From the IMG/VR virus record IMGVR_UViG_3300044981_000214: a stretch of DNA of 64,000 nucleotides, one strand, 5' to 3'. Below, piece after piece: positions 16,904 to 62,921 of this stretch. The stretch's first letter is position 1. Each line of letters begins with the position of its first letter. The position numbers and the translations under genes were made by a program. Under the pieces are notes generated by a model. The model had not been told where the DNA came from. It was given only the letters and a program-made list of their open reading frames with translations, and ran no database searches. The stretch is from a virus (taxonomy: Duplodnaviria; Caudoviricetes).

Positions 16904-16937
16904 ATCAGCTCTACGTTTAACCTAGAAATTCTATTTC
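16904..16937 (-). promoter_or_regulatory. GAAATA-N15-RCGTW promoter (leaderless)
   Basis: GAAATA GAATTTCTAGGTTAA ACGTA GAGCTGAT ATG. Confidence 0.75.
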
Positions 16938-17074
16938 ATCCAGCCAATTCATTGCCTTGAAGGCGCATCAGGCAAAAGCAGCTGTTGGTTGTTCGGGAAC
17001 AGCAACTCGGCGATCTTCCGAACATGGCGCGGATGAGGACGCCAAGGCTGACGCCGACGCTTGCATCGAAGCAT

Positions 17075-17281
17075 TTAAGAAGACAGCGGATCCAAACACC
17101 ACTCCGCCTTCGTCGGCACTTCGCTAGGCTTGTGATCGCACGCACACCCGGGGCAACACGCCACCTGGGCGCCTGGCTTACGATCAGGAAGATTAGTCCA
17201 GAAAATTGTAGGTGTACGACATGAGAAACAACGCTCGTATGGCGGCTCAGGATCGTCTTGACGCTGGATGGGTACGCTCAT
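17075..17281 (-). pseudogene. duplicated copy of 16685..16903 with a replaced C-terminus
   Basis: first 61 aa identical. Confidence 0.7.
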
Positions 17282-17315
17282 ATCAGCTCTACGTTTAACC
17301 TAGAAATTCTATTTC
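17282..17315 (-). promoter_or_regulatory. GAAATA-N15-RCGTW promoter (duplicate copy)
   Basis: identical to 16904..16937. Confidence 0.75.
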
Positions 17316-17334
17316 ATCCAGGCCCCTATTTCAG

Positions 17335-17376
17335 AAAAAAAAAACGCGAAGTTAGCCCCTCCGGGCCAACTTCGCG
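17335..17376 (-). terminator. intrinsic terminator
   Basis: CGCGAAGTTGGCCC ggag GGGCTAACTTCGCG followed by T10. Confidence 0.85.
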
Positions 17377-17387
17377 AGGTTATAGGT

Positions 17388-17446
17388 TGGACGATTACAC
17401 GTGAAAGATGCTGGACGATTACACGTGAAAGATGTTGGACGATTAC
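17388..17446. repeat. 24-bp tandem repeat, about 2.5 copies
   Basis: TGGACGATTACACGTGAAAGATG(C/T). Confidence 0.85.
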
Positions 17447-18096
17447 TATTTCTTGAGCGGTTGCAGCCTCGCGTCGATAGCCTCGGGTCCAACCAATAGC
17501 CACCTTGCCCGCCCAGTCGTACCGAAATTCCAAATGGGAGCGCCAGACCGTTGGATCGCTACGATCGCAGCACTGATTCGAGCGGGGCGTGCACCAATCG
17601 CGGCAACCAGTTCCAAGAGATACATCGGGCGGTAGGAGATCAACTTCCTGACTACCTTATCCAGTTCCTGAGCCGTGCACGACTCACCAATACGCCACGT
17701 CCATGCGGGGCGTTCCTCGGTCCCGAGATTGTAGATCTTCTCGGTCTTGATAGGCTCGACGAGCATCGTCTGGACGCGATTCAACGGGATCCCTAGGCGC
17801 TTCTGTAGGTCCACCGTAGAAAGAATGCCTTCGCTAAGCATGACCTCCAAGGTTTGACCGATGGGTGGAATCGCCTTGAGCACGGGTGCCTTTATTTCCC
17901 TTGTACCTCGTGCCAGTTTCTGACGAAGCGTTGTCAACTCCTCTCGCATATCAGCGAGCGACTGTTCGAGATGCAACATCGTCGGATGTCTGGGGCCTTC
18001 GTTGACGACCTCTTGCGAGTGCTGTTCACTCCCATTGGTCGTCTCGTTGGTCTGTTCGGTGGATTCGGTGGGTTCGATATTATTGCTATTCAGCAT
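17446..18096 (-). CDS. probable tandem winged-HTH DNA-binding protein
   Basis: two HTH-like segments, each followed by NLG/NFG...W. Confidence 0.6.
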   Translation of the reverse strand: MLNSNNIEPTESTEQTNETTNGSEQHSQEVVNEGPRHPTMLHLEQSLADMREELTTLRQKLARGTREIKAPVLKAIPPIGQTLEVMLSEGILSTVDLQKRLGIPLNRVQTMLVEPIKTEKIYNLGTEERPAWTWRIGESCTAQELDKVVRKLISYRPMYLLELVAAIGARPARISAAIVAIQRSGAPIWNFGTTGRARWLLVGPEAIDARLQPLKK

Positions 18097-18382
18097 GCGC
18101 TGGCCTTGTGCAGCCGCTGTGCCGTAACCTAGTATTTTGTGATCTCATATATTTATGCGGAAACATATGTAATAACCACTACGCGCATTAGACACACCGC
18201 GCTATAAAGGCCTAGCAGATTAGCAACAACTCAAATTTATTTGGAAATTCCTTACCGTTGAACTACAACTCTTGACTTAGCTTACAAATTTAACGCGCAA
18301 ATTTTCTTCCTCTTCCTTGTCAGATTCGCCCCTCGTGCTGCGTCTGGGTGATTGAGAGACGTAATAAAGGAGGTGGACTAAT

Positions 18383-20113: not shown

Positions 20114-20923
20114 GTGGAAAAACTTTTGGTCGCGCTTCCGCTTTTCGGCTCGGTATCGGTCACATTCTTCGACCGTTGGAACCAGTTAGATAAGTCACCG
20201 ATGGTCCGTATGTCTTCGATGAAATGTCCGTACATCCACTTATCGATGCGGACAATTGTCGAAGAGTCGTTAGCCCAGACCGGATGGGATCGTCTGGTAA
20301 TACTTGAACACGACATGATTCCACCGATCGACGCACTGGTCAGAATCGCCACAGTACATAAAGACCATGACATCGTTGGCTGTATGTATTTCAAACATGA
20401 ACCTCCGCACTATCCGTATGTATGGAATAGAGTAGGTAACGAGCCCTGCGATATTGAGGCTCAACGACTGAGCAAAGAAATCAAAGCAGGGCTGAAAAAG
20501 ACCAAACGGACTGATGAGAATCATCGTCAGCAGGCCGCAGCCCGACAGAGGGCGTATGAACTTGAGCTACTAGCCAATAATCGCCGCTTGCCGCCGCCTA
20601 TCCAAGTCATTAAGCAATGGTGTGATAAACCCGGTCTATATGAATGTGATGCAGTCGGTATGGGACTGACGTCTATTTCAAGAAAAATGTTAGAGGCGTG
20701 GCCGGAAGACATTTCAATGTTCAACGCTCCCGCCGAACTGCCCTATCGAGGAAGTCATGACCTCTGGTTTTGTGATAAAGCCAAAGACCAAGGGTTTAAA
20801 GTCTGGTGTGATTCAGGTTTGATCGTCGAGCATCTAACAACAGTCCCGGTCGGACTATCGCATGCGCTCGACCACATGATTGTGCCGTCGGAAGTCGGGC
20901 AAGTTAGCTTCAATAAGAAATAG
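20114..20923 (+). CDS. GT2-like glycosyltransferase
   Basis: ILEHDMIPP, DIVGCMYF, GMGLTSISR, HDLWFCDKAK..GFKVWCD...H. Confidence 0.75.
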   Translation: MEKLLVALPLFGSVSVTFFDRWNQLDKSPMVRMSSMKCPYIHLSMRTIVEESLAQTGWDRLVILEHDMIPPIDALVRIATVHKDHDIVGCMYFKHEPPHYPYVWNRVGNEPCDIEAQRLSKEIKAGLKKTKRTDENHRQQAAARQRAYELELLANNRRLPPPIQVIKQWCDKPGLYECDAVGMGLTSISRKMLEAWPEDISMFNAPAELPYRGSHDLWFCDKAKDQGFKVWCDSGLIVEHLTTVPVGLSHALDHMIVPSEVGQVSFNKK

Positions 20924-20942
20924 CGCCTTCAGCGTTTACGTC
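20917..20942 (+). promoter_or_regulatory. GAAATA-N15-RCGT promoter with no adjacent ORF
   Basis: GAAATA GCGCCTTCAGCGTTT ACGTC. Confidence 0.5.
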
Positions 20943-21118
20943 GTCGCTTAGATAGACTATCTGGCGGAGGGCGATTGAATCTGTACTGCGCACACCCTCC
21001 ACGGCCCTTGGTAGGCAACGAATAGTCCACGCTCGATGCGCCCTCACCCCTTGATACGCACACTGCACGGCCCTTGTCCGCCTGTTTCTTATTGCATAGC
21101 GACATCGAACGCTCATAT

Positions 21119-21155
21119 GCTAGTGACAGCTTCTCAGGTGCTAGTGACAGCTTCT
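21119..21155. repeat. short direct repeat GCTAGTGACAGCTTCT x2 (21-bp period)
   Basis: seen directly upstream of tnpB. Confidence 0.75.
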
Positions 21156-21200
21156 GGAAGAAATCGTGCTTATCCAGTTGACACCCAATCCAGCTAATCC

Positions 21201-27351: not shown

Positions 27352-27539
27352 TGATTGGAGTTGATTATTTCGACCTAGGCGTAGCGATGTATCGTCGTGG
27401 AGAACCGTGTCCCAATTACGATGGAATCGCTCTGACGGCTTGGATCATCGACGGATGGAAGCACGCCGCGAAGGTAGCGCAGGAGCCCGGGTACGAATGC
27501 GAGTGTGTGTCGTTCGATCATAAGACTATTCTTCGATGA
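27348..27539 (+). CDS. hypothetical protein
   Basis: coupled; G..CP.Y...W..GW. Confidence 0.5.
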   Translation: MMIGVDYFDLGVAMYRRGEPCPNYDGIALTAWIIDGWKHAAKVAQEPGYECECVSFDHKTILR

Positions 27540-27997
27540 TGATGTCTGTGGCCCAGAAGACGTGCGTAGTCGAGATCCTGACTAGATTTAGCGACCATCA
27601 CCGTAAGCACGGCTATACGCTTCTGACTAGTCGATTGATGGCAGTAAAGTTTGTACCGCATACCTATGAAGGCGTGTTAGTAATGTACCCGGAGGGCTAT
27701 ACGCTAGATGTGTATGAAATTTCTATGTACGATGCCACCGCATTCAGTCTGGGTGCAGCCCGCATTGTCGCGTATGGCCGTGACGACGGACGTACTGGTG
27801 CCTTATTGCCAGCCGCCAAATTAGGGATTCATATAACTCTGCTCGTTAGTCCCAAAAGTGGACTGCCTTTGTCTGGCGATGAGGTCAGAGAAAGAATCAG
27901 TGGAAGGCTATTCACTTGTCCGTGTTCGATTTGCAAAGGGGAGAGCGCTTACATGCCGACAATTTTGTCTCCGATCAAGACTGTTAAGGAGCCTTAA
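27536..27997 (+). CDS. hypothetical protein
   Basis: coupled ORF. Confidence 0.55.
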   Translation: MMMSVAQKTCVVEILTRFSDHHRKHGYTLLTSRLMAVKFVPHTYEGVLVMYPEGYTLDVYEISMYDATAFSLGAARIVAYGRDDGRTGALLPAAKLGIHITLLVSPKSGLPLSGDEVRERISGRLFTCPCSICKGESAYMPTILSPIKTVKEP

Positions 27998-27999
27998 AA

Positions 28000-28374
28000 G
28001 TGCCTGCCTACAATCAAATACAGCAGATTGTTATCGATGTGAGTCCTGAAGGTGCCATGTCTGACATCGTTTTTTCTTTCCATGGCAGTGATCCAAAGCA
28101 AGCACCGATGTGCATAGCCGAGTTTATTCCTGACTCGGCAACGCGGATCAAGTTAGAGAGTCTAGAAATCATGCTAGACAAATGGTTTGCAACCTATAAA
28201 GGCCTATTTAAGTGTGGCAAGCCAACAAAAACCGGGCCTTGTGTCTGTGCTGCAGGACACGATGAATGGGGCTGGTGCCCGTGTGAAAGTAACTCAGAAC
28301 TTGTCTGTTCTGCGTGCGGTCTTAGCTGTGATCATGTAGACCAAGCACACGTATTTTCGGTACAAGCAAAATGA
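28000..28374 (+). CDS. Cys-rich hypothetical protein
   Basis: RBS AAGGAG. Confidence 0.55.
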   Translation: MPAYNQIQQIVIDVSPEGAMSDIVFSFHGSDPKQAPMCIAEFIPDSATRIKLESLEIMLDKWFATYKGLFKCGKPTKTGPCVCAAGHDEWGWCPCESNSELVCSACGLSCDHVDQAHVFSVQAK

Positions 28375-28853
28375 TTTGTCTTGAATGCAACGAAGTTTTC
28401 GCGCCTAGAATTTGCAAATGCGCGGGCGCAAGTCTAGGAAAGCGGTCCATTTGCAACGATTGTTGCGATTGTGGTGCAGCTACGATGACCTTTGAAGATC
28501 GTTTGGCAAAAATAGACAACCTGCACGAAAAATCCTTGGAAGCGTTTGTAAATCTGCAATTTTGCCCTCATTGTGATCAGCCGCGGGCAACCGCACCCGA
28601 GCACACGCCATGCCTCCCTATTAACTGTCCGACCTGTGATAATTTCTGTCACGGACTATTTGAAAACGGCGTGTGTACTAACCCTCCTGGACGCTCGGCA
28701 CCAGGAAAACGTAGGCTATTAAATCACATTGTACAGCTCGCTGTAGCGATCAAGAACTGTGACGGCAGCTATGAGAATCTCAAGCGCCTCACAACCGAGA
28801 TGAATAAGGTCACCGCTGAGTACATGAAATCTCCCGAGGACGAAAATGCTTAA
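28371..28853 (+). CDS. Cys-rich zinc-binding protein
   Basis: CPHC..CPTCDNFC..LFENGVCTNP, shared with 35148..35447. Confidence 0.65.
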   Translation: MICLECNEVFAPRICKCAGASLGKRSICNDCCDCGAATMTFEDRLAKIDNLHEKSLEAFVNLQFCPHCDQPRATAPEHTPCLPINCPTCDNFCHGLFENGVCTNPPGRSAPGKRRLLNHIVQLAVAIKNCDGSYENLKRLTTEMNKVTAEYMKSPEDENA

Positions 28854-29334
28854 GCTAACCCAAACTAGCCTCTACCCCAAAGGCAACTGCTGGCAGACAG
28901 CTGTAGCCTGTCTACTCGATATACCGGCTGAACAATTGCCATCTCAAGCCGATAGCTATTACTCGAAAATAGACAGGGATTCAGGCGAGACTACCTGGCA
29001 CATGAACTACAATAACAGGCTTCAAGCCTACCTGAAAAAGCACCACAAGCTTGCATATATCGAGCTATGGCAGCCCCAAGAGGCGTTATCTCAATTGCGT
29101 ATTGTTGGATATCACCTGATGTCTGGGACGACAGTACGTAGCGCTGCCTACGGTGGCCAACGGCATATCGTTGTTGGTTACGAAGGCAAGGTATTTTGGG
29201 ACCCTCACCCCAGCCAAGCGGGCTTGTTAGACGAAATCAGATGGGCTGTATTGTGCCCATTCCCACCTTCATGGGAACGGTATCAAAACGATGCGTGTGA
29301 ATGTCTGGCGTGCGTTGGCGAACCGAAACAATAA
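28846..29334 (+). CDS. papain/C39-like fold phage protein
   Basis: GNCWQTAVACLL...HIVV..G..FWDPHP. Confidence 0.55.
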   Translation: MLKLTQTSLYPKGNCWQTAVACLLDIPAEQLPSQADSYYSKIDRDSGETTWHMNYNNRLQAYLKKHHKLAYIELWQPQEALSQLRIVGYHLMSGTTVRSAAYGGQRHIVVGYEGKVFWDPHPSQAGLLDEIRWAVLCPFPPSWERYQNDACECLACVGEPKQ

Positions 29335-29336
29335 AC

Positions 29337-29612
29337 ATGAAAGATACCCCTACAACTGAGCTGGTTACTCGTGCTGTCGAGTATGCATTAGATGCTGCTT
29401 TAGGAGAAGTTCACCGTCAGGTCGGTGAAATGGGACATGTACTGAAAGAAGCTAGGGGCGCTGGTATGGACGCTGCACAGCTGTACATCGACCAAACAAG
29501 AATCAAGATCAGGGGCGAAGACTTCGCCTGCGAAGAGTGCGGCAAGCTTCAGGGATCACACTTGGATAATGGCTGGTATAGATGCAGCAATTGTGGTTAT
29601 CCTAGTAAGTAA
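29337..29612 (+). CDS. zinc-ribbon protein
   Basis: CEEC...CSNCGYP. Confidence 0.55.
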   Translation: MKDTPTTELVTRAVEYALDAALGEVHRQVGEMGHVLKEARGAGMDAAQLYIDQTRIKIRGEDFACEECGKLQGSHLDNGWYRCSNCGYPSK

Positions 29613-29616
29613 TCTC

Positions 29617-29642
29617 GAAATAATTCGTCTTGGTTAGGCGTA
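29617..29642 (+). promoter_or_regulatory. GAAATA-N15-GCGTA promoter
   Basis: GAAATA ATTCGTCTTGGTTAG GCGTA. Confidence 0.65.
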
Positions 29643-29736
29643 GACCTGATGGCAGGTATGCGCTAGAAGCTTTGTCGGCCCTAGTATCAACTAGGGAACA
29701 GAAATAAAACCCTGGATACACGTCATCCAGGCAGTT

Positions 29737-29955
29737 ATGAACTTGACCGGCTACTATGAATCACGAGGTAAACGACGAACAAAGAAAATAGCCCGTGCTA
29801 AGCGACTACGTCTACGACGTGCAGCTAAACGTGAGCTAAATAAAAATGAGGGCGTCGCGGGTGACTCTTACGCTGACACCTACCCGAGTGGCGTCAGACC
29901 CTCAAAAACAAAACAGCCGCCGAGAGAGAGAGAGCTTGCTGCGTTTCCGCAGTAG
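29737..29955 (+). CDS. small Arg/Lys-rich protein
   Basis: ORF downstream of the promoter. Confidence 0.4.
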   Translation: MNLTGYYESRGKRRTKKIARAKRLRLRRAAKRELNKNEGVAGDSYADTYPSGVRPSKTKQPPRERELAAFPQ

Positions 29956-29972
29956 AGGCCCGGCGGCTTTGT

Positions 29973-33183: not shown

Positions 33184-33189
33184 TAGCCT

Positions 33190-33989: not shown

Positions 33990-34024
33990 GAGAGATGAAA
34001 CGCTTATCGAGGCGTTACTATTTC
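33990..34024 (-). promoter_or_regulatory. GAAATA-N15-GCGTT promoter
   Basis: GAAATA GTAACGCCTCGATAA GCGTT TCATCTCTC ATG. Confidence 0.7.
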
Positions 34025-34524: not shown

Positions 34525-34558
34525 GGCTATAATACGCCCTAGTGGACGGAGCTATTTC
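34525..34558 (-). promoter_or_regulatory. GAAATA-N15-GCGTA promoter
   Basis: GAAATA GCTCCGTCCACTAGG GCGTA TTATAGCC ATG. Confidence 0.8.
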
Positions 34559-35644: not shown

Positions 35645-35678
35645 GGCTAATATATGCCTGAGGGTAAATAGCTATTCC
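35645..35678 (-). promoter_or_regulatory. GGAATA-N15-GCATA promoter variant
   Basis: GGAATA GCTATTTACCCTCAG GCATA TATTAGCC ATG. Confidence 0.7.
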
Positions 35679-35704: not shown

Positions 35705-36139
35705 CTAGATCAAACTACGTTTCCGCCGGGCCGCGTCCGTGTTATGTGGACGAGCGTCGTCGTGACCCCACTTGTCGAAACAGTGTGCACACTCATGGGT
35801 CGTCTTGAAGTTCTCCTCGTCAAGTACAGCCTGTTCAAGCTGTGCGAACCACCAGCGCAGGTTCCAACGCCGAGAAATAGGGTGCGGGATGTTAGAGGAT
35901 TGGAACTCACCGTAACCCAGCACCTGCAAGCCGCGCATGACGCCAAACGCCTCACCGTAGTAGCCGTCGGTGACATCGAACGTCACTTCCTTGGTGTCGT
36001 ACTTGCCCTGGTTTCGCATGCAATCACGGGCTGCGTGAAGCATCATCTTGACTTCGGACTCGATCTTTAGGATCTGCGCATCCGAAAGTCGAAGGAAGCG
36101 AATATCTTCAAACCGCTTAATGGTCTTGTTGGTCTTCAT
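35705..36139 (-). CDS. hypothetical phage protein (leaderless)
   Basis: GYYGEAFGVMRGL..LGYG; promoter motif. Confidence 0.7.
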   Translation of the reverse strand: MKTNKTIKRFEDIRFLRLSDAQILKIESEVKMMLHAARDCMRNQGKYDTKEVTFDVTDGYYGEAFGVMRGLQVLGYGEFQSSNIPHPISRRWNLRWWFAQLEQAVLDEENFKTTHECAHCFDKWGHDDARPHNTDAARRKRSLI

Positions 36140-36173
36140 GGCTAATATACGCCTGACAGGGAACCACTATTTC
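36140..36173 (-). promoter_or_regulatory. GAAATA-N15-GCGTA promoter
   Basis: GAAATA GTGGTTCCCTGTCAG GCGTA TATTAGCC ATG. Confidence 0.8.
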
Positions 36174-36631: not shown

Positions 36632-36665
36632 GGTCATATTACGTCTCAAGTCAGCCGACTATTTC
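36632..36665 (-). promoter_or_regulatory. GAAATA-N15-ACGTA promoter
   Basis: GAAATA GTCGGCTGACTTGAG ACGTA ATATGACC ATG. Confidence 0.75.
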
Positions 36666-37922: not shown

Positions 37923-37958
37923 TTGACGCCATAACGTGGACTATCTCTAGAATATTTC
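37923..37958 (-). promoter_or_regulatory. GAAATA-N15-ACGTT promoter
   Basis: GAAATA TTCTAGAGATAGTCC ACGTT ATGGCGTCAA ATG. Confidence 0.65.
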
Positions 37959-39161: not shown

Positions 39162-39195
39162 ATTAGTCATACGCTTTAGTCGACCTTGTTATTTC
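39162..39195 (-). promoter_or_regulatory. GAAATA-N15-GCGTA promoter
   Basis: GAAATA ACAAGGTCGACTAAA GCGTA TGACTAAT ATG. Confidence 0.75.
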
Positions 39196-39313: not shown

Positions 39314-39347
39314 GCTCTATATACGCATAGGTTAACGGGAGTATTTC
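39314..39347 (-). promoter_or_regulatory. GAAATA-N15-GCGTA promoter
   Basis: GAAATA CTCCCGTTAACCTAT GCGTA TATAGAGC ATG. Confidence 0.75.
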
Positions 39348-46534: not shown

Positions 46535-46718
46535 GCGGCGTTGATTTGTCGCGTACCCAACCTTCAGGAAGCGTTACCCTTAGGCTCTCTAATGCATAAT
46601 CGTCAAAAGTTCTGTCGTTGGAAGTAGTTGACCTGTATGGACCCGGTGACAGTGTGCCATCAGCAAAGTCGCTCTTGCTACATTTGCTACAGCTGATCAC
46701 GAGGACTAGCGTAATCAC
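46500..46718 (-). CDS. small zinc-finger protein
   Basis: CSKC..LPEGW..LCPNC. Confidence 0.55.
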   Translation of the reverse strand: MITLVLVISCSKCSKSDFADGTLSPGPYRSTTSNDRTFDDYALESLRVTLPEGWVRDKSTPLGVGHLCPNCK

Positions 46719-47305
46719 AAAGTCTCACTTTCGTGCGTGGTCGTAGAGACAACTAGCCGAAAGCCAATGATGTTTGGCCGTGCGTCCCATTCATGTTGCC
46801 TTGGAAAATCCTTATAGGCCAGTGCACGAGTCTTTATAAGCTTAATTTCTTCATCGGTAGGGCGACGACGAAGAAAAATTGCAACACTTTGATACGCAGG
46901 CCATTTGCGATGCTGCTCTGCTGGCTTTCCTTCTTTGCAGTCGGAACAGTTACTTTGTTTCTTGAACTTTCCTGAGTAAGCAGCTGGGAAATGTTCCCCG
47001 TGAACGTTATAGAAGCCAGGAGTGACGGTAATGCTCACATACGAGCGATGATATCCGTCATCGCCCGGATCTCTAATTCTCTCTTCTACAAGCTCATCTA
47101 AGGGTCCAGCTGCATACTCGCCTTTAATCTTGAGGGCTTTACGCGCTGCTTCTGCTTCATAAGTTGCGTAAGCTCTTTCGCCACAGCTTTCACTCATACC
47201 TGTGATGAATGAGAAAATCGGCCGTTCGAAATTGCCTGAATACGTATCAGTGTCAATTACGAAGGTGTATTTAATCTTCATAGGATCGATGCCAAGGAAA
47301 CGCAT
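46715..47305 (-). CDS. hypothetical phage protein
   Basis: IDTDTYSGNFER..ITG; YQSVAIF. Confidence 0.7.
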   Translation of the reverse strand: MRFLGIDPMKIKYTFVIDTDTYSGNFERPIFSFITGMSESCGERAYATYEAEAARKALKIKGEYAAGPLDELVEERIRDPGDDGYHRSYVSITVTPGFYNVHGEHFPAAYSGKFKKQSNCSDCKEGKPAEQHRKWPAYQSVAIFLRRRPTDEEIKLIKTRALAYKDFPRQHEWDARPNIIGFRLVVSTTTHESETL

Positions 47306-47308
47306 AGG

Positions 47309-47575
47309 TCAATAACGCCCGTGCTGACGCTTTCGCTCCTGCTGCTCGCGATACTTGTTAGTCTCCTTGACGTAAAGCTTCTCCAACTCGAAGCGATACC
47401 ACTTCTTAGGCGGGTTACCGTTCCAACTCACCATTGCTGTCTGCGTTTCTTTGTCGACAGAAATGATTCGGACCCTCCATAAGCCGAGTTCGCGCATCGT
47501 ACTGTTACCCATGCGATAGCTGTGGATATCCAATAGGATCATGCCAGGCTCGATCTTATCGAATTTGATGCTCAT
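47309..47575 (-). CDS. hypothetical phage protein (SH3-like)
   Basis: MGNSTMRELGLW..VSWNGNP. Confidence 0.65.
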   Translation of the reverse strand: MSIKFDKIEPGMILLDIHSYRMGNSTMRELGLWRVRIISVDKETQTAMVSWNGNPPKKWYRFELEKLYVKETNKYREQQERKRQHGRY

Positions 47576-47608
47576 AGACTCAACGAGTTGAATACCCTAC
47601 ATTATTTC
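47576..47608 (-). promoter_or_regulatory. GAAATA-N16-TCGTT promoter variant
   Basis: followed by 6 nt then ATG. Confidence 0.5.
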
Positions 47609-47609
47609 A

Positions 47610-48350
47610 TCAAATTCTACGCCAAATCGCCAAATTCATTTTGGAATGCGTCCGAGTAGTCTGATGCGTATAAGTCCAGCCTTGCACGAACTCCAACTTA
47701 CATCCAACCCTCCTAGCGAGCCCTGTCACCAGCTCACGTACACCTCGCCATCGAGTATCGTCATTCATGGCTGCAGGATCGCAGATATCTTCACCAGCAG
47801 CGGTCCAAACATCCCGTGCCGCGTGCTGAATACTACTCTCGCGGCCAACATAAAACGTCAACGCTATAATACCGTTTGGTGCCAGCCTAAAGCAGGTCTC
47901 GACAATTGCTGGCTGAACATACTTACGTGTCAGTAGTCCCATAAAATCAAGATAGGCAAATCCAATACGAGCATCTTTGGGCTTGTTCCGAAGGACTTCA
48001 ACAATGTCATCGCAAATTGTGTTCACACCAGGATAGCGCGCTTTAAGGCCATCAAATCCTGTAAGTATTGCTGCTCGCGTAGTTGGCTCTTTAGCCCAGT
48101 CTACAAAGGTACTGAGTCTTGGATCCCTACGCAAATGATCAAACAGCAACGAGGCTTCATACTCAGCTTCGTGTCCGGCTAGCGTAATAGTCTCAGCCCA
48201 TCTCGGTGTCGATACAACGTGTTCCTTGTAGAGCTGCAGGCGCACGGTGTTTTTAGACAGATCAGCGACTGGGTAGACACCCTCTGCGTAGCGTTTGTTA
48301 GTACGCAACATTGGCGAGACATCTAAGCCGGAATTGGCAGATGCTGTCAA
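47610..48350 (-). CDS. Rossmann/methyltransferase-like protein
   Basis: DDIVEVL..FAYLDFMG...LAPNGIIALTF. Confidence 0.5.
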   Translation of the reverse strand: MTASANSGLDVSPMLRTNKRYAEGVYPVADLSKNTVRLQLYKEHVVSTPRWAETITLAGHEAEYEASLLFDHLRRDPRLSTFVDWAKEPTTRAAILTGFDGLKARYPGVNTICDDIVEVLRNKPKDARIGFAYLDFMGLLTRKYVQPAIVETCFRLAPNGIIALTFYVGRESSIQHAARDVWTAAGEDICDPAAMNDDTRWRGVRELVTGLARRVGCKLEFVQGWTYTHQTTRTHSKMNLAIWRRI

Positions 48351-48353
48351 GGG

Positions 48354-49136
48354 CTACTTAGCTACCGTCCAGTTGTAGGTGGCCCCGTTGTGAACGTCGC
48401 CGCGCGTAATCTTTCCCTGATCCTTGAGCTGGGTCAGGACACGGAACGTGATCTCCCACGGCCTGCCAATTGCCTTCTTGACACCGTTGGTCGTGATTCC
48501 ACCGTTCTTGGTGGCAGCGATTACAACCTTCAGAGCCTTCTCAGCAGACTTCGCGTCCCTCTCGGGGTACATAGACTTCATGTTCCTCGGCTTATCCGTC
48601 GAAGACTTATCAGTCGAATCCTGAAACGTCTGCAGTGCACTGCGCCAATCGCGTAGCTGATTCAACGTGATGTTGTAGTACGCGCGAAACCGACGCTTAT
48701 CTACGAGCAAGGGCAAATTGTCATACACAGCCAGTACCCCAACCCGGTCGCTCTTGGTATAGCTACCATCAGCGTTTGGTTGAACGCGGCAAGCAAATGA
48801 ATTTGCAGCCGTGTCAGCACGCTTCGTAACAGGTCCGTTCAAATTCTTCTTTGGAGAAGCAGGGAAAGGGAATGCAGGCGCATTACCCAAATCGTACATC
48901 ATGATACTTGGGGGCTTACTTGGTGCCTTAGCGGGCTTAACCGACTTCACACGATCCGAGACATCGGTCGGGCTCTCGCCGTGCGTGAGCTGCTGGTACT
49001 CGATCCAGCCCTCAGTCAACATGCGATCACCCGTCATCATTTTCTCGTAAGCGTCCCCAATCATCTTTTGACGCTGCGTCCAGCTGGCCTTCAAATCAGC
49101 AAAGTTCTTCATTGCCTTAATTCCTTTATCTTTCAT
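48354..49136 (-). CDS. probable DNA-binding protein with HTH and C-terminal wHTH
   Basis: YNITLNQLRDW; VLTQLKDQGKI. Confidence 0.6.
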   Translation of the reverse strand: MKDKGIKAMKNFADLKASWTQRQKMIGDAYEKMMTGDRMLTEGWIEYQQLTHGESPTDVSDRVKSVKPAKAPSKPPSIMMYDLGNAPAFPFPASPKKNLNGPVTKRADTAANSFACRVQPNADGSYTKSDRVGVLAVYDNLPLLVDKRRFRAYYNITLNQLRDWRSALQTFQDSTDKSSTDKPRNMKSMYPERDAKSAEKALKVVIAATKNGGITTNGVKKAIGRPWEITFRVLTQLKDQGKITRGDVHNGATYNWTVAK

Positions 49137-49161: not shown

Positions 49162-49187
49162 AACGTTTAGCCGCCTAACGATATTTC
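49162..49187 (-). promoter_or_regulatory. GAAATA-N15-ACGTT promoter (leadered)
   Basis: GAAATA TCGTTAGGCGGCTAA ACGTT. Confidence 0.65.
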
Positions 49188-49395: not shown

Positions 49396-50168
49396 GCTGC
49401 TTCCTCCTCTTTTTCTTTGTTAGCATCACTCAACGCATCTTGAGAAGTAAAATGTGCAATGGCAGATTCGATTGCATCGAGATCGAGATCGCGACCTGCA
49501 AGTCTGGCCGCTTGCCGCGTAGATTTGTCGCCAGCGCCACGTATAGCCGCCTTGATTTCAGACGCAGCCTGCAACGCCCGCTCGACGGCAAACCTGATGA
49601 TATCGCTTTGGATACCTACTGCAAGCTGTTCGAGATTAATTGCTCGGATCTTGAGCTTATGAATCGAGGCGACATCACCGCATCGAAGTGCATCTCGCAA
49701 TGCAGTGAGCACACCACGAACGGTGGCAGCAATTTCTTTGACTGCCTCGGGCTGTGCCAAGTCGAGTTTCAGCGGCACGACGTCGATTTGAACTCGACGC
49801 TTGGAATTAGCCTTAGCGGCCTTTTTGTTGAGCTGAACAGCTTAAAGCTTAAGCTCGTCGACCTCGGTACGGACTTTGGCAAGCCTGACATCGTCGGCAA
49901 AACAGCCAATCTCTGTACGGGTACAATGCTTCCTGAGGACATAGTCCACGCGCTTGACCAACGAGTCCATCGCAGAAACGATCTCAACGTTATCGACGGT
50001 CTTGCGGGTCTTGTGGTCGGTCACTTGACGCTTATCGAGTGAGATATGATCCTCGATAAGCTCACGCGTATAATGGACACCCCCGGTTGCATTAGACCTA
50101 TCGCGAATGATCCAACCGGGGCGAAATCGAAAAGTATTTTCCGTGCTTATCCGGTTGTCACCACTCAT
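49392..50168 (-). pseudogene. single ~258-codon gene split by an in-frame TAA (49842..49844)
   Basis: ..DELKL*AVQLNKKAAKANSKRRVQIDVVPLKLD.. continues in frame. Confidence 0.7.
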
Positions 50169-50397: not shown

Positions 50398-50700
50398 TTA
50401 CACAGATTGCATCAGCCGACGAAACTTCTTAGTAGAGCCACAACGTGTGCGGAATTGCCCCACGATCTTGTCGATTGCTTCGTCTTCGGTAGAACCGTAG
50501 CCAACGAACAAGGTTCGGTAACCGTCAAGTAGCTGATCATCGGCAACAATCTCGATTTGGCAGCGATTTGCCTTGCTGGAAACGTTTAGCGTCATCTGTG
50601 CTTTGACCTCGGATGTACTGTCGATAAGAGCAGAATTTGCGAGGAGTTTTTCCGCAAACGTAACCAACGACAGCAATTTTTTGTTAAGCGTATTCTTCAT
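50398..50700 (-). CDS. hypothetical protein (leaderless)
   Basis: promoter motif. Confidence 0.65.
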   Translation of the reverse strand: MKNTLNKKLLSLVTFAEKLLANSALIDSTSEVKAQMTLNVSSKANRCQIEIVADDQLLDGYRTLFVGYGSTEDEAIDKIVGQFRTRCGSTKKFRRLMQSV

Positions 50701-50734
50701 AAGCCTGAAACGCTTGGTTGGCGTTTCCTATTTC
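50701..50734 (-). promoter_or_regulatory. GAAATA-N15-GCGTT promoter
   Basis: GAAATA GGAAACGCCAACCAA GCGTT TCAGGCTT ATG. Confidence 0.75.
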
Positions 50735-54611: not shown

Positions 54612-55281
54612 TGCCGTCGAGAATAATTTCTCGTGCCTTTTTATATTCGCCTGCGTCCATTACCGCTAGGGCGGCATGGCGATAGTCCGATGGCAGTTGC
54701 TCGTAACCCGGGAAGGCTTCAATGCCGCATTCATGTAGGTCCAGTTGAGTCAGACCAGCACGAAGCGCGTCCCTGACGGCGAAACGGACAGCTCTAGCTC
54801 CGCTAGAACTGATTACAGGACGTACAGCATCTTCTGGATCCTCATCAATAATTCGATCTCCTCGCTTATCTCGTATGTGTTCGCTCCAAGTAGCTTGAAC
54901 CATTCCGTCAATAATTGATTCGACAGTACTCTGATTGCGTTGACGATTGACCAGTTCAGTCGACGTAAGCTGAAAAAAGCCTCGAATTTGTTTGTCCGTG
55001 TACCAGTCACGTATAGGTTTGGCAGAAGCACGGACCATATAGGGCTGTAATTTGCAACAAATCGCTCTTGGATAAGTCCCCAACAGATCAGAACGAACAC
55101 TGATCTTACGATCAGCAAGACGCTTCAAAACGGCTATAAGAAATCGTATACGTTCCCAGTCCCAATTGACCAGTTGCTCTACAGCAGTAGCGGCTTGATC
55201 AGCAGTAAGAGTCTCTTGGTAAATCTTGGCAGTCATACTTTCGAGCTTAGCGAAATCGACATCCTTGATACTCACGATCAT
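54592..55281 (-). CDS. hypothetical protein with C-terminal ELLxALQA-like module
   Basis: ends SDYRHAALAVMDAGEYKKAREII. Confidence 0.65.
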   Translation of the reverse strand: MIVSIKDVDFAKLESMTAKIYQETLTADQAATAVEQLVNWDWERIRFLIAVLKRLADRKISVRSDLLGTYPRAICCKLQPYMVRASAKPIRDWYTDKQIRGFFQLTSTELVNRQRNQSTVESIIDGMVQATWSEHIRDKRGDRIIDEDPEDAVRPVISSSGARAVRFAVRDALRAGLTQLDLHECGIEAFPGYEQLPSDYRHAALAVMDAGEYKKAREIILDGIKLGQR

Positions 55282-56939
55282 TATACTTCCTGAACTTTGC
55301 GATTGGCTGTATCTACTATAACCTCAACTCCTTCAGTATATTTCTCCAGTGCCCCAGAAATACGTACCATCGGGAGTAACCGATCGCGGCCGATTTGAGC
55401 CAAGTGTGCGGTAGCGCCACCTTCCTCCGTGATCACCGCACAAGCGTGCGCAGTCGACACTAAATACTTGGGATGCAAGTTGGGCAGGACAACCACGCTA
55501 CCTTCTTCCGAAGGCAAATTAGGCTTGCCGTGCACGACTCGACCGGACGCCCACGGACCGTCAACTAGGACAGTAATGCCTCTTCCAGCTTCACTAAATT
55601 CATTTTGCAGGTCGCGTACTTTATTCATTGCGGCGTCGGCGAGCGGACTTGGATAGTACAGTAATTCACGATTCGCCGGATCAAGACCTGCACCGACCAC
55701 CCAATCTGTATGATCTTGATTATCCAGTGGCATTTTCATGCCTGAGGGACATACGTTCTGCCAGGGTTGAAGAAAATCCTCGTACATCTTCATTTTAGCG
55801 AACGCCCAACGCAGAAAAGGCGCACGCGGTACCTGGACTTTCCCTGCAGGAATATTGCCATTCCTGCCCCAGGCTTTATCGAGTTCGTCTCCCTTGGACT
55901 CTTCCCAAGACAGTTCAAACAAATCACCGTTGGCCTGCTCCAGAATTTGTTTCTGGTATGCAACTAACCGACGCTTGTACAGCTCATCGCGCTCAAGGTC
56001 AATTTGATCTTGTGCTTCCTGAGCAGCACCTTCATCGACGATTTCATGTGAAAGCTCTTCGTCGGAATCCAGTTTATGATCAAGCTCGTTAAGTTCGTCG
56101 AGTTCTTTGGCTAGCGCAAGCTCGGCATTGATCCGTGCATTCATTGGTAACAGGTCAGCCTTCTTGATTGCATCCTGTTCACGTTTAGTGCGCTCAGCGT
56201 TCATGAAAATAGCTTTTGCAACACGCGCAGGTTGCTCAGGAGGGTCACTCGTGACGTCCTTATCGTCAGCGTCTGCCCAAATTTCTTCAGAGGTCGTGCC
56301 GTACCATTTTGAATGGCTACGCTCCTCAAGACCGTGCCCAGCAGCCAAATATTCGTCGAGCGCTTCCTGCGGCCCTCGTGGAGGCGTCAGCCAATGCGGG
56401 CGCTCATTGCAGGCACGAAAAATCGTCTCGCGTGCCAATCCATAAGAGTCTTTGTCAGGATCAGGATATGAGGTATGCTCCGCTACGATTTCGTCTTTAC
56501 TGCAGTAATGCCAAGCGCGATTCTTATAGCCGCGCTGCATGCCAAAACCATAGCGAACTACAGGCTTCTGGTGATCGTTTCGCATATCACGTGGGCCCAT
56601 ATCGCTCACGTAGGCTACCGGACAATACCATCTACCGTTGATTTGGATACGGCCCGCGTAGATATGCTTGACCTGTTCCTGAAAGGATTTGGTAGTGGCT
56701 ACAGGCTCCTTGACGAGCTTCATCCCTGACTCGTTGCCGACGAGACGCTTGGTGCCAGTCAGGATAGACAACGCTGCGTCAGCAACGCCATTATCTCTGT
56801 CGTCACCTTCGCCTTCGTCGTTTAGAAGGCAACTAGCGATGCGCCAAGCCGAACCGGGAGCATCTTCTAACAAGCGTTGGCGAGCTAGATTCGTTAGATT
56901 AGCGCCAGAAATTTGAAAGTGCATAGTAGGCATAATCAC
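55281..56939 (-). CDS. large protein with C-terminal PEP-utilising (phospho-His swivel) domain
   Basis: ASGRV, AVITEEGGATAHLAQIGRD..LPMV, VIVD. Confidence 0.75.
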   Translation of the reverse strand: MIMPTMHFQISGANLTNLARQRLLEDAPGSAWRIASCLLNDEGEGDDRDNGVADAALSILTGTKRLVGNESGMKLVKEPVATTKSFQEQVKHIYAGRIQINGRWYCPVAYVSDMGPRDMRNDHQKPVVRYGFGMQRGYKNRAWHYCSKDEIVAEHTSYPDPDKDSYGLARETIFRACNERPHWLTPPRGPQEALDEYLAAGHGLEERSHSKWYGTTSEEIWADADDKDVTSDPPEQPARVAKAIFMNAERTKREQDAIKKADLLPMNARINAELALAKELDELNELDHKLDSDEELSHEIVDEGAAQEAQDQIDLERDELYKRRLVAYQKQILEQANGDLFELSWEESKGDELDKAWGRNGNIPAGKVQVPRAPFLRWAFAKMKMYEDFLQPWQNVCPSGMKMPLDNQDHTDWVVGAGLDPANRELLYYPSPLADAAMNKVRDLQNEFSEAGRGITVLVDGPWASGRVVHGKPNLPSEEGSVVVLPNLHPKYLVSTAHACAVITEEGGATAHLAQIGRDRLLPMVRISGALEKYTEGVEVIVDTANRKVQEV

Positions 56940-58697: not shown

Positions 58698-58731
58698 AAA
58701 TATCAAACGAACTACCTAGGCGACTTATTCC
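58698..58731 (-). promoter_or_regulatory. GGAATA-N15-TCGTT promoter variant
   Basis: GGAATA AGTCGCCTAGGTAGT TCGTT TGATATTT ATG. Confidence 0.6.
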
Positions 58732-60659: not shown

Positions 60660-61064
60660 CTACCAGTGAGGCGTACCTAGTCCGGGTTTGATAGCTGTCA
60701 GTTGATCTTCGCCTAGTCCGTGAACAGGTCTATATACAGCCTCAATCAATAGACTTGCAGCGGTAAATTTCTGGTTACGCCAGATTTCGAAGTCCCGCCC
60801 GGTTTGACTCACATCCCATTCACTACGCCTCTTGGTAGCTACTGTGTATAGAGGCGTACCATCGCAGTCACGGTCATGTGCCACGACATACATGTGCGCG
60901 ATTATTTTGCGTCCTGCATCGTTCCCGAAATATTCATCGTACTTGACTTCTACAAGCTCATCAATCGGGTACTTGTGTTTGCTAGTAAGGTTATTTTCTC
61001 TAATCGTTCTGCCGTTTGACTCGATGATCTCGCTGAATTTGATGAAATTAGTCACTGGGGGCAC
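60660..61064 (-). CDS. hypothetical phage protein
   Basis: HKYPI..LVEV, YVVAHDRDCDGTPLY. Confidence 0.7.
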   Translation of the reverse strand: MPPVTNFIKFSEIIESNGRTIRENNLTSKHKYPIDELVEVKYDEYFGNDAGRKIIAHMYVVAHDRDCDGTPLYTVATKRRSEWDVSQTGRDFEIWRNQKFTAASLLIEAVYRPVHGLGEDQLTAIKPGLGTPHW

Positions 61065-61372
61065 TCCCTAGTCAACCACCAGACATACTGGAATAGATCA
61101 GCACCAGCACCGTCTACTGCCCATTTCTCTTCTTGTGGAGGTCCCAGCAACCGCCAGCCTTCGTTCAGCATCTCCAAGATACAATAGTATCGAGGAATAT
61201 CTGCACCTGGCGTGTGGCCGATAAAGTACGGAGGCCAATCGTATACTTGGTTCTGCAATTTCTTGCGGACTAACAACGACGAGTCCTCATAGGACCAACC
61301 GTCGATCTCGGCGCGGAGATTCGGCTTTGCAGTTGTCACCGAAGCGACTTGGACTTGGTTTTTCTTGTTCAT
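61052..61372 (-). CDS. hypothetical protein
   Basis: EGWRLLGPP. Confidence 0.6.
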   Translation of the reverse strand: MNKKNQVQVASVTTAKPNLRAEIDGWSYEDSSLLVRKKLQNQVYDWPPYFIGHTPGADIPRYYCILEMLNEGWRLLGPPQEEKWAVDGAGADLFQYVWWLTRECPQ

Positions 61373-61373
61373 A

Positions 61374-61589
61374 TTATTCGCCGTTCAACGCCTCGCGACC
61401 ACCTTCACGAATCCATTCGTTGTAGTCCTCGAACGTTTCGAACAGCAGGTATTCGCGCGCGCCGAACTTATACCGGCCGGTGTCTGCCTGGCCTGCGCAG
61501 ACCACTTTGGCTGCATCGGGCATGGCGAACGCCTTGGCACCCGCCTCGGACATTGACACAACACGCAGGAATCGATCACGCTCAAACAT
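61374..61589 (-). CDS. hypothetical protein
   Basis: YLLFETFEDYNEW. Confidence 0.55.
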   Translation of the reverse strand: MFERDRFLRVVSMSEAGAKAFAMPDAAKVVCAGQADTGRYKFGAREYLLFETFEDYNEWIREGGREALNGE

Positions 61590-61620
61590 TTTTCTTTAAT
61601 CCAATTTAGCAAGAAAAAAG

Positions 61621-62646
61621 TTAGGCAGCGACGGCCTCAACCGGCTCGCCCTTCCGCTTACGCGGCTTGGCCTTCTTCGCCGCCTCACGGACCTGGGTCA
61701 GCAGGACGCCCATCCGAGGATCGACGCCCTCCTCACCGAGGATCAGCTTGATGGCTGCAGCAGCACCATTCCAGAACGCTTGGCTCTCATCCTTGGTCGA
61801 CCTAGGAGACTCGACGATCGCCGTCAGAATCCGCTTCTGCGTCATCTTGTCGGACACGCCAACACGCTTGTTGGTGACCTTCGCCTTGGCCTGCTTGACC
61901 TCGCGCTGAGACGTACCCAACGACCCAGCGTTAGCCAGAATCTCGTCGAGCGCCGCCTTCTGCTTCTCAGAATCCTTGATCGTCGACAGCTCCCAGCCCG
62001 AAGTCTGGCTGATCTTGCCGGACTCGACCGCCTTCTTGACGGACGAAACCGCGTTGTCGTCATAGTCGAGCCAGTTGCGGATCGTCGTGACGGTCGTGTC
62101 GAACTGGATCGCCACGGTCTCGTCGTCGACACCGCGCTCCTTGAGCTGCTTGACCTTGAGGATCTTGGTGGCGATGTCATCGTCGAAGCGGGCCTCGTTC
62201 TCGGCAATCGAGATTCCGAGCATACGAGCGTCGCTAGACGGCCGCACGATCTTGATCTCGACCTTCATCTCGGGCTCGCCGCGCTCCTTGCGCTGCCGAT
62301 TGACAGCACGAGCAGCTCGGACACGCCGCCGACCAGCCACGACCGTAGCCACACCGTCGATCTTGGCGACGAGGACGGTCTCCAGGACACCGTTGTAATC
62401 GACATTGGCCACGAACGACTTCTTCAGCGCCATGGTGTTACGGCTATCCCAGAGCGTGTGGGTCGGGCCGTCGTCAGTGTCCAGGTCACCTGCCTCCTCG
62501 GCAGGCAAACTCTTGCCGCCGATGATACGAAGATCGGTGATAGGGTCGACGTTGAAGAACCCACCGACACGAGAAAAATCGAAGGACTGCTTCTTGTTCG
62601 TAACGTTATCGGTATCGGACTTATCAGACTTCTTACGCATATTCAT
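61621..62646 (-). CDS. ParB/Srx N-terminal domain protein
   Basis: GVLETVLV, VVAGRRRVRAA, ENEAR, HTH VAIQFDTTVTTIRNW. Confidence 0.8.
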   Translation of the reverse strand: MNMRKKSDKSDTDNVTNKKQSFDFSRVGGFFNVDPITDLRIIGGKSLPAEEAGDLDTDDGPTHTLWDSRNTMALKKSFVANVDYNGVLETVLVAKIDGVATVVAGRRRVRAARAVNRQRKERGEPEMKVEIKIVRPSSDARMLGISIAENEARFDDDIATKILKVKQLKERGVDDETVAIQFDTTVTTIRNWLDYDDNAVSSVKKAVESGKISQTSGWELSTIKDSEKQKAALDEILANAGSLGTSQREVKQAKAKVTNKRVGVSDKMTQKRILTAIVESPRSTKDESQAFWNGAAAAIKLILGEEGVDPRMGVLLTQVREAAKKAKPRKRKGEPVEAVAA

Positions 62647-62724
62647 TTCCTTGAAAGATGAAAATCAGGCCGTTGGCGTTTTGGTTGTTGAATTTGCCCT
62701 GTATGGCCCTTGTTGTAGATGCAA

Positions 62725-62750
62725 GACGTTTGGTACCACAATCCTATTTC
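62725..62750 (-). promoter_or_regulatory. GAAATA-N15-ACGTC promoter for the ParB-like gene
   Basis: GAAATA GGATTGTGGTACCAA ACGTC. Confidence 0.65.
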
Positions 62751-62888
62751 ACTTGTCGAGAGTATTTTGTGATGCGTTCTGGAAGTAGACGAAACATCAA
62801 CTATAAATGTATTCGATCGACAACGAAATAAAAATTATGCTATAGGAGGAAATCGGGTTCCCGCGCCTAGATTTTTTGGTGTTCGTAA

Positions 62889-62921
62889 GAAATAAAACCT
62901 CCAACAAGACGTTATACCGTC
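62889..62921 (+). promoter_or_regulatory. GAAATA-N14-ACGTT promoter (leaderless)
   Basis: GAAATA AAACCTCCAACAAG ACGTT ATACCGTC ATG. Confidence 0.6.

Follow-up and report, generated by a model that had tools for sequence, protein, structure and literature searches.

A two-box motif recurring between the genes of an uncultured soil virus (Duplodnaviria; Caudoviricetes; record IMGVR_UViG_3300044981_000214, genome ~229 kb) is probably a real sigma-type promoter that has the -10 sequence and spacing of the extracytoplasmic-function (ECF) class and gives rise to leaderless or near-leaderless mRNAs. The analysis covered a stretch of 64,000 nt of this genome, referred to here as the window. Judged from gene order and sequence comparison, the putative promoters flag accessory cassettes that were inserted or can be exchanged, a feature that is new relative to the first-pass annotation of this DNA.

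In its strict form, GAAATA-N15-RCGTW, the motif occurs 12 times in the 64-kb window, while 0.11 matches are expected from 100 dinucleotide shuffles, none of which contained more than one. The less specified GAAATA-N16-CGT gives 14 matches (0.57 expected) and GAAATA-N17-CGT gives 6, and spacers of 8 to 15 or 18 to 25 nt yield 0 to 3 matches each, near background, which indicates a sharp spacer optimum. GAAATA by itself is also over-represented in the window (80 versus 32 expected). Six variants, those at 35678, 58731, 47608, 62889, 62750 and 20917, were accepted on context, bringing the promoter set to 18 and confirming all of the about 18 sites listed by the first-pass annotation; the weakest members are 20917 and 62750. 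The 15-nt spacer is present in 16 of the 18, as had been claimed, the exceptions being 47608 (one longer) and 62889 (one shorter). No conserved upstream element is shared among the window copies.

The placement of the motif relative to genes is highly regular. Non-coding DNA accounts for 11% of the window, and 16 of the 18 sites fall mostly within it (binomial p = 7e-14); every site faces a co-oriented downstream gene, in line with the intergenic or gene-end placement first described. The relaxed pattern is noisy when used alone (36 matches, about half of them intragenic), which is why the variants depend on context. An ATG follows the pentamer at exactly 8 nt in 11 copies (p = 4e-16), reproducing the earlier count, and at 6 to 10 nt in 15; the 8-nt stretch is too short to hold a Shine-Dalgarno sequence. 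Because the start codon is fixed 8 nt after the pentamer, CGT would lie at -12 to -10, as in ECF promoters, if transcription started from the A of the ATG (+1). GAAATA(R) would then be the -35 element and CGT(A/T), 16 nt downstream, the -10 element of a two-box promoter of the sigma-70 family, and the transcripts, with no leader or one of a few nucleotides, would be translated with no Shine-Dalgarno sequence. The suggestion that the motif corrects start codons applies to four genes, where it shifts the longest-ORF start to the ATG that follows the box (33989, 36631, 39161 and 58697). Less accurate was the description of the 34-39.4 kb cluster as having close to one promoter per gene: it has 8 promoters for ~15 genes, and 5 of the 8 head single-gene units. 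The individual copies are listed in Table 1.

Table 1. Candidate promoter copies and promoter-linked cassettes in the window. Plus signs before numbers give nt past the pentamer. Minus-strand coordinates in the first-pass annotation correspond to the low end of the motif plus 8 nt.
Feature	Position	Strand	Downstream start or genes	Further observations
Strict copy	16912..16937	-	ATG 16903 at +8; starts 72-aa zinc-ribbon ORF 16685-16903	
Strict copy	17290..17315	-	ATG 17281	Identical to 16912..16937 copy; inside 225-bp perfect tandem duplication; hairpin and T-run terminator just upstream
Weak variant (CGTC), doubtful member	20917..20942	+	Next co-oriented gene tnpB, 258 nt away	Overlaps called ORFs
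Strict copy	29617..29642	+	5-codon mini-ORF at +6; next real gene from 29737	Identical in L001
Strict copy	33999..34024	-	ATG 9 nt later; 69-aa ORF 33780-33989	L001: boxes kept, 5/16 spacer bases changed
Strict copy	34533..34558	-	ATG at +8; 105-aa ORF 34207-34524	L001: GGAATA, 7/16 spacer bases changed
Variant (GGAATA and CAT)	35653..35678	-	ATG at +8; four-gene unit 35644 down to 34598	CGT in L001
Strict copy	36148..36173	-	ATG at +8; 144-aa ORF 35705-36139	Cassette replaced in L001
Strict copy	36640..36665	-	ATG at +8 (36631)	Overlaps 3' end of upstream gene; 21-nt tandem duplication spans start region
Strict copy	37933..37958	-	Productive ATG at +10 (37922); leads three-gene unit	
Strict copy	39170..39195	-	ATG at +8 (39161); 199-aa ORF	
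Strict copy	39322..39347	-	ATG at +8; 35-aa ORF 39206-39313	
Variant, spacer one longer	47582..47608	-	ATG at +6; genes 47309-47575 and 46715-47305	Genes missing here in relatives
Strict copy	49162..49187	-	25-nt leader without Shine-Dalgarno; genes 48354-49136 and 47610-48350	Genes without homologues in relatives; TGA stop of upstream gene covers first two -35 box bases
Strict copy	50709..50734	-	ATG at +8; 100-aa gene 50398-50700	Upstream TGA stop covers first two -35 box bases
Variant (GGAATA)	58706..58731	-	ATG at +8 (58697); 101-aa lipoprotein-like ORF	TAA stop of upstream gene within GGAATAA
Variant (CGTC), plausible but weaker	62725..62750	-	78-nt leader, then ParB-like gene 61621-62646	Divergent intergenic hub
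Variant, spacer one shorter	62889..62913	+	ATG at +8 (62922)	Divergent partner of 62725..62750
Exchangeable cassette	35705..36139	-	144-aa gene	Unrelated 97-aa gene in its place in L001
Two promoter-led insertions (49187 and 47608 units)	46715..49136	-		Between conserved genes 49392-49778 and 46190-46534

ECF promoters carry CGT at -10, with CGTA used by sigmaW, and have spacers of 14-17 bp (PMC5758882), and Streptomyces sigmaE promoters have the form GGAAC-N17-CGTCT (PMC6767563). Comparison with these sequences supports the assignment of the -10 element. Like the promoters of group 4 ECF factors such as B. subtilis sigmaW (TGAAAC-N16-CGTA) and Streptomyces sigmaE, the motif consists of two short boxes with CGT at about -12 to -10, and it shares their fixed, narrow spacer (5-mer plus 17 nt) and close adherence to consensus. 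CGT is kept in 17 of the 18 copies, the exception being 35678. Unlike ECF promoters, the motif is virus-borne, abuts start codons and has a -35 box (GAAATA here, TGAATA in related viruses) without AAC; in the window this box reads G(A/G)AATA, with T in all copies at the position where the ECF AAC has C. AAC in the -35 element is nearly universal among ECF promoters, and GGAAT-type -35 elements are known for SigR and SigH. The ECF signature first claimed for this motif stands for the -10 sequence, and the spacing too is that of ECF promoters, but the predicted -35 element is non-canonical, with AAT for AAC. The canonical sigma-70 arrangement TTGACA-N17-TATAAT is rarer than in shuffled sequence (10 versus 18.7 between 33 and 52 kb), and leaderless promoters of the extended -10 type number only 3 across the window. 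Leaderless transcripts were reportedly described in Thermus phage phiYS40 by Sevostyanova et al. in 2007. There, as in leaderless genes of Deinococcus-Thermus and Actinobacteria (PMC12340547, PMC3160421), the -10 element is fixed 6-8 nt before the ATG and a Shine-Dalgarno sequence is missing, much as in the window, although those genes use the TAnnnT box of primary sigmas, whereas here CGT(A/T) is combined with a -35-like box.

The next question is which factor reads the promoter. None of the 132 window ORFs matched a sigma family among Pfam and PHROGs profiles, including Sigma70_r2 and r4, and at that sensitivity the earlier statement that the window has no sigma gene holds. Sigma region 2 was likewise not found with Sigma70_r2 and the TIGR02937 ECF model in five related virus genomes, of which four are 90-100% complete, and multisubunit RNA polymerase was not recognisable in the relatives, for which a search for single-subunit polymerase was uninformative. 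Because of these absences, we slightly favor a host ECF-type sigma over a viral factor that has diverged beyond recognition. Nor was a cognate anti-sigma gene found. Host ECF sigmas are usually held inactive, which counts against a host factor as the reader. We speculate, with considerable reserve, that a family of very large viruses, themselves lacking any recognisable sigma or multisubunit RNA polymerase, has placed dozens of exchangeable accessory genes under the control of a host stress-type (ECF) sigma, so that the envelope stress of infection would turn the cassettes on, with leaderless mRNAs translated without a ribosome-binding site and the promoter repeat acting as the joint for shuffling. 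The earlier proposal that such mRNAs get round a block on canonical initiation gained no support from the analysis.

It is also possible, though doubtful, that a virus-encoded sigma or sigma-like factor, located outside the window or too divergent for the profiles, reads these sequences, which would make them phage-specific promoters of the middle or late class like those of phiEco32/7-11 or SPO1. The motif dominates among the promoter types in 64 kb of a ~229-kb virus, ~165 kb of which lies outside the stretch searched for sigma genes, and its lineage-specific boxes (GAAATA/CGTW in the window, TGAATA/CGTC in the relatives) fit coevolution with a viral factor; moreover, phage sigmas are often very divergent while their promoters are well conserved (PMC4331800). 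The regulons of phiEco32, 7-11 and SPO1 also resemble the present case: a well-conserved promoter that is not of the sigma-70 type recurs across the non-structural part of the genome (PMC4331800, PMC13401047). Those phages, however, encode a recognisable sigma, and the copy number here is far higher than in their regulons. Against a viral sigma stand the lack of any sigma-family match in the window and of region 2 in the relatives, where the only region-4-like matches were an HNH endonuclease, an integrase and a small zinc-ribbon HTH protein, the last of which has no homologue in the window.

More distant relatives, with genomes of 195-221 kb and 62% GC, have a core akin to the motif. In G001, G002 and G004 it reads GAATA-N15/16-CGTC(T) and precedes start codons, and one divergent pair lies close to the same conserved block of genes; the CGTCT of the relatives equals the -10 of Streptomyces sigmaE. 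This core lies directly downstream of a 16-nt element containing TTGCTT, and given that element, the GAATA and CGTC boxes in the relatives could serve another role. The element bears on a much less probable explanation, sigma appropriation, in which a viral activator bound to GAAATA near -30 would replace -35 recognition and the host primary sigma would do the rest, as with MotA/AsiA at T4 middle promoters. The center of GAAATA near -31 would suit such an activator, and in the relatives the 16-nt element with TTGCTTTG precedes both the core and sigmaA-like TTGACT-N17-TAnnnT promoters, which suggests a common upstream protein-binding site. The downstream box, however, is CGT rather than TAnnnT and lacks the A at -11 and T at -7 required by primary sigmas, the window copies have no such upstream element in common, and no MotA- or AsiA-like protein was found among the window ORFs with Pfam and PHROGs profiles. 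A reading without promoter function, in which the motif is a repeated site for protein binding or recombination (an operator or a cassette attachment site, for example) that just happens to lie between genes, is very improbable: its coincidence with cassette boundaries and the excess of GAAATA alone would fit, but the motif is asymmetric, always points the same way as the gene downstream and keeps a fixed 8-nt distance from the ATG, and two short boxes around a free spacer are a signature of sigma recognition, not of a recombinase or repressor site.

Comparison with strain L001, the sole strain-level relative (10 kb, 91-99% identical), is consistent with the promoter reading: differences affect 2 of 60 box positions and none of the 48 positions in the 8-nt stretch, versus 15 of 96 spacer positions (Fisher p = 5e-4). 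The putative promoters lead small lineage-specific accessory genes rather than conserved core genes, and the motif also marks the boundaries of cassettes. At the cassette that is swapped in L001, homology breaks off at the start codon that follows one promoter and restarts at the -35 box of the next. The 225-bp tandem duplication begins 6 nt upstream of the -35 box. Promoters 50734, 49187 and 47608 lead genes that are missing from the relatives and flanked by conserved neighbors. The conserved genes on either side of the 49187 and 47608 units are 324-357 bp apart in G001, G002 and G004, and in the same genomes the distance between the DUF2201 gene and a conserved 123-aa gene is 45-84 bp, versus 783 bp here, where the gap holds promoter 50734 and its 100-aa gene. 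Since cassettes have been inserted, duplicated with their promoter or swapped between copies, the promoter repeat probably doubles as a homology patch for cassette exchange, a model that draws on a single swapped cassette in the 10 kb of one strain-level relative.

Where relatives have two genes side by side, the window has additional genes led by a putative promoter of their own, an arrangement that recalls the morons of lambdoid phages, reportedly described by Juhala et al. in 2000 and by Hendrix et al. The 50734, 49187 and 47608 units are autonomous in this sense. A classic moron has a terminator as well, and its expression in the prophage usually depends on the primary sigma of the host; the likeness here concerns gene order and the putative promoter. 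A second parallel is with the promoter-early stem-loops (PeSLs) of T4-type phages, repeated promoter cassettes in hyperplastic, ORFan-rich regions at which insertions, replacements and duplications between close strains break (PMC2839356, PMC4122927). One replacement, one duplication and three insertions have breakpoints at the promoter repeat in the window. PeSLs, however, pair a strong early promoter of sigma-70-like type with a terminator stem-loop (PMC2839356, PMC4122927), whereas the promoter here is ECF-like; terminator-like hairpins are not enriched (19 versus 18 expected), and only the 17315 copy has one.

For uncultured giant phages, promoters are hardly ever known, and the one described here is present in high copy and sharply defined. 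The motif can be used to divide the genome into transcription units and fix start codons, and it picks out accessory cassettes of recent acquisition. Should the reader be a host ECF sigma, this would be an unusual virus that runs a large share of its program by way of a stress sigma, and the motif could be of use in identifying the host; a hidden viral factor, if that is the reader, would represent a new sigma-like family. The promoter-bounded swap would provide a second, independent example, outside the T4-like phages, of the PeSL principle that regulatory repeats serve as recombination joints.

We confirmed the two-box motif GAAATA-N15-RCGTW and its sites in the window, where minus-strand copies are named here by their high coordinate, at the -35 end. 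All 18 sites of the first-pass annotation are present: 12 match the strict pattern, against 0.11 matches expected, and the remaining six vary (GGAATA in two, with CAT as well in one of them; a spacer of +/-1 nt in two; CGTC in two). The spacing is sharply specific, as a spacer scan of the window gave 14 matches for GAAATA-N16-CGT (0.57 expected), six for N17, and 0 to 3 for each of the remaining spacers from 8 to 25 nt. The relaxed pattern alone has 36 matches in the window, about half of them within genes, so the variant sites depend on their context; the weakest of the 18 are 20917 and 62750. The described placement also holds, with 16 of 18 sites in the non-coding DNA that makes up 11% of the window (p = 7e-14) and every site co-oriented with its downstream gene. 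The ATG stands exactly 8 nt past the pentamer at 11 of the 18 sites (p = 4e-16), as first counted, and 6-10 nt past it at 15; the 8-nt gap is too short to hold a Shine-Dalgarno sequence, in line with the claim that there is none. Between 33 and 52 kb, canonical TTGACA-N17-TATAAT promoters are rarer than in shuffles (10 matches vs 18.7), and extended -10 boxes (TGnTAnnnT) lie 6-7 nt ahead of a start codon only three times in the window. On these counts the motif is the main recognisable promoter type in the window.

With the A of the ATG taken as +1, CGT falls at -12 to -10 and GAAATA at -34 to -29. [quoted passage not shown] The sigmaE sites of Streptomyces, GGAAC-N17-CGTCT (PMC6767563), have the same spacing as GAAAT-N17-CGT in the window and the same -10 box as the CGTCT of its relatives. 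The CGT -10 box and the spacing agree with ECF promoters, but the -35 box lacks the C of AAC, so that the motif falls somewhat short of the canonical ECF definition. Apart from the AAC and a known sigma, the motif would work as an ECF promoter. Conservation was read against L001, a metagenome contig of a close strain (9,951 bp, 89-99% identity over the aligned part of the window). At the six motif sites common to both, the boxes differ at 2/60 positions, the 8 nt before the ATG at 0/48 and the spacers at 15/96 (Fisher p = 5e-4), the pattern that would be expected for two protein-contacted boxes with a free spacer between them; the deviant CAT of window site 35678 reads CGT in L001. As far as sequence can tell, the promoter, ECF-like and leaderless readings appear well supported. 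A primary-sigma reading through TATATT was rejected, as it suits only three or four copies and would put the transcription start within the ATG. Also dismissed is an archaeal BRE/TATA reading, since GAAATA is not followed by an AT-rich box and there are both a bacterial-type terminator and a peptidoglycan hydrolase. The leaderless transcripts of Thermus phage phiYS40 reportedly use a primary-sigma -10 box, in which they differ from the putative leaderless transcripts of the window. These phage transcripts are among the work cited in PMC12340547.

The claim that no sigma gene lies in the window was borne out at the sensitivity of Pfam and PHROGs, neither of which picked up a sigma domain among 132 window ORFs. 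Likewise, five relatives, of which four are 90-100% complete, gave no region 2 with the Sigma70_r2 and TIGR02937 models. Region-4-like matches considered as sigma candidates were really an HNH endonuclease, an integrase and a small zinc-ribbon HTH protein without a window homologue. Two conserved unknown proteins looked up in the Atlas yielded nothing of use. No beta-subunit-like match to a multisubunit RNA polymerase was seen in the relatives, and a model for single-subunit RNA polymerase matched nothing anywhere, its controls included. With neither a sigma domain nor a multisubunit polymerase seen, a host ECF-type sigma is slightly favoured as the reader, although the window makes up only 64 kb of a 228,894-bp contig (by protein look-up). 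As to the host, homologues of TnpB all come from Pseudomonadota but reach at most 54% identity, and RfbA, about 60% identical to proteins of many phyla, is uninformative. A search for WhiB found none, and the motif was not in excess in 121 Chloroflexota genomes and five other genomes. Leaderless genes are common in Deinococcus-Thermus, Actinobacteria, delta-proteobacteria and Acidobacteria (PMC3160421), clades that may offer only a hint of the host.

The window has a GC content of about 49% and some 135 ORFs, mostly small and few with known domains: two tyrosine recombinases, TnpB, a DnaB-like helicase, a ParB-like protein, RfbA, a MoxR ATPase with a DUF2201 VWA/metallopeptidase, and a 552-aa protein with a C-terminal PEP-utiliser phosphohistidine swivel domain. 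A Shine-Dalgarno-like sequence, loose definition included, precedes only about one third of the called genes, and ATGA overlaps join many of them. Deposited phages compared with the window gave no near match. The 552-aa protein serves as a marker of the virus group, with 78 homologues, many on contigs of viral size (100-240 kb), and in the closest relatives it always adjoins MoxR and DUF2201. An alignment of these homologues recovered relatives from IMG/VR, where the single sequence retrieved none; neither the DnaB protein nor an alignment of DnaB turned up a close relative in that collection. Protein searches also turned up relatives of 232 kb and 110 kb. We read four relatives in full, G001 (196 kb), G002 (221 kb), G003 (138 kb) and G004 (65 kb), all of about 62% GC, and a block of the marker protein, MoxR, DUF2201 and several small proteins is syntenic among the window, G001, G002 and G004.

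The exact motif is missing from five relatives, the exact promoter string had no match in IMG/VR, and a motif scan of IMG/VR gave, among the matches listed, single chance occurrences only and no locus related to the window. G001, G002 and G004 carry a longer, related element: (C/G)TTACTCTTGCTTTGT, then GAATA, N15/16, CGTC(T) and an ATG 7-15 nt further on. Only the relaxed core is common to these relatives and the window. A divergent pair of the relatives' element lies near the conserved block, as 62750/62889 do in the window. The 16-nt upstream element, (C/G)TTACTCTTG(C/A)(T/C)TTG, precedes both the GAATA..CGTC core and ordinary TTGACT-N17/18-TAnnnT promoters in the relatives, and may thus be bound separately, by a viral transcription factor. 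Genes behind the longer element in G001 encode an SNF2-type helicase, a DUF2786/DUF7168 protein, a DUF6011 protein and other non-structural products. G001 and G002 also share a small protein (70% identical) with a Cys-rich N-terminus and a sigma-region-4-like HTH, without a window homologue, and this protein might bind the upstream element.

Several smaller features were noted along the window (see table). Behind promoter 29617, a 5-codon mini-ORF (MAGMR-stop), perhaps a leader peptide or a decoy start, begins at +6 in place of a gene, the next gene lying 94 nt downstream. A 21-nt tandem duplication covers the -10 box and start codon of gene 36176-36631, yields repeated ATGs and is also found in L001. 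A 283-bp insertion that includes a poly-A run sets the window apart from L001 immediately upstream of dnaB, the true start of which is probably 31947, not 31873. Elsewhere a TnpB-like fragment in L001 takes the place of different DNA in the window. A short direct repeat lies within the 84-bp gap upstream of tnpB in the window. The 24-nt repeats directly after gene 17446-18096 are followed by a typical bacterial intrinsic terminator, made of a GC-rich hairpin and a run of about a dozen Ts, and then by an extra GAAATA 17 nt ahead of the true -35 box.

Coordinates of features in the window, the close-strain contig L001 and the relatives G001 and G002
Feature	Sequence	Coordinates	Strand
552-aa marker protein	window	55281-56939	minus
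Part aligned to L001	window	27507-37136	
TnpB-like fragment	L001	1-925	
-35 box overlapping preceding stop codon, TGA-AATA	window	50734; 49187	minus
-35 box overlapping preceding stop codon, GGAA-TAA	window	58731	minus
Perfect 225-bp tandem duplication	window	16719-16943; 17097-17321	
24-nt repeat TAATCGTCCANCATCTTTCACGTG, two and a half copies	window	17333-17450	minus
Direct repeat GAAGCTGTCACTAGCA, two copies	window	~21117-21165	
Mini-ORF	window	29643-29660	
283-bp insertion	window	31658-31939	
Swapped gene	window	35705-36139	
21-nt duplication GTAATATGACCATGAATGAAA, two copies	window	~36598-36643	minus
Double-promoter hub	window	62647-62921	
Gene beside hub	window	63377-63661	
Region compared with hub	G001	33.9-39.6 kb	
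16-nt element	G001	33916-34127; 36676; 47822; 74748; 81854; 108991	
16-nt element	G002	98902-99258; 134720; 137267; 164926	
Small Cys-rich HTH protein	G001	99352-99756	
Small Cys-rich HTH protein	G002	147791-148723	

The gene between promoters 36173 and 35678 is swapped in L001 for an unrelated 97-aa gene. Homology ends at the start codon after promoter 36173 and restarts at the -35 box of 35678, and the stop codon of the replacement gene sits within the -35 box of that second promoter. The 225-bp tandem duplication, with a 378-bp period, begins 6 nt upstream of a -35 box. It takes in the promoter along with the greater part of a small CxxC zinc-ribbon gene, which is thereby present as two paralogues that differ in their C-termini. 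Inside the conserved block, copies 50734, 49187 and 47608 head genes without a counterpart there in G001, G002 and G004, and conserved neighbours 45-84 bp or 324-357 bp apart in the relatives are 783 bp and 2.9 kb apart in the window. Among the genes of the 34-39.4 kb promoter cluster, almost none has a homologue in the relatives. Given the lack of counterparts at both places, the promoters mark lineage-specific, inserted units, and this association of promoter and cassette is a new point. The gene beside the double-promoter hub and the marker block are divergent across the hub in the window, whereas its homologue in G001 lies upstream of, and co-oriented with, that block, an arrangement that suggests an inversion with its breakpoint at the promoters.

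Repeated promoter cassettes are known from T4-type phages, where promoter-early stem-loops (PeSLs) in regions rich in ORFans bring about insertions, deletions and replacements (PMC2839356). The motif is like PeSLs as a genome-organising repeated promoter, and like the morons of lambdoid phages (extra genes with their own promoter) as a genome-organising element; it differs from both in that the window promoter is not sigma-70-like and terminators are no part of the unit. In more distant relatives (L162 and L164-L189) the motif is not above chance. With the relaxed core present in G001, G002 and G004 and nothing above chance further out, GAATA/CGT is a core common to one subclade that has multiplied in the lineage of the window.
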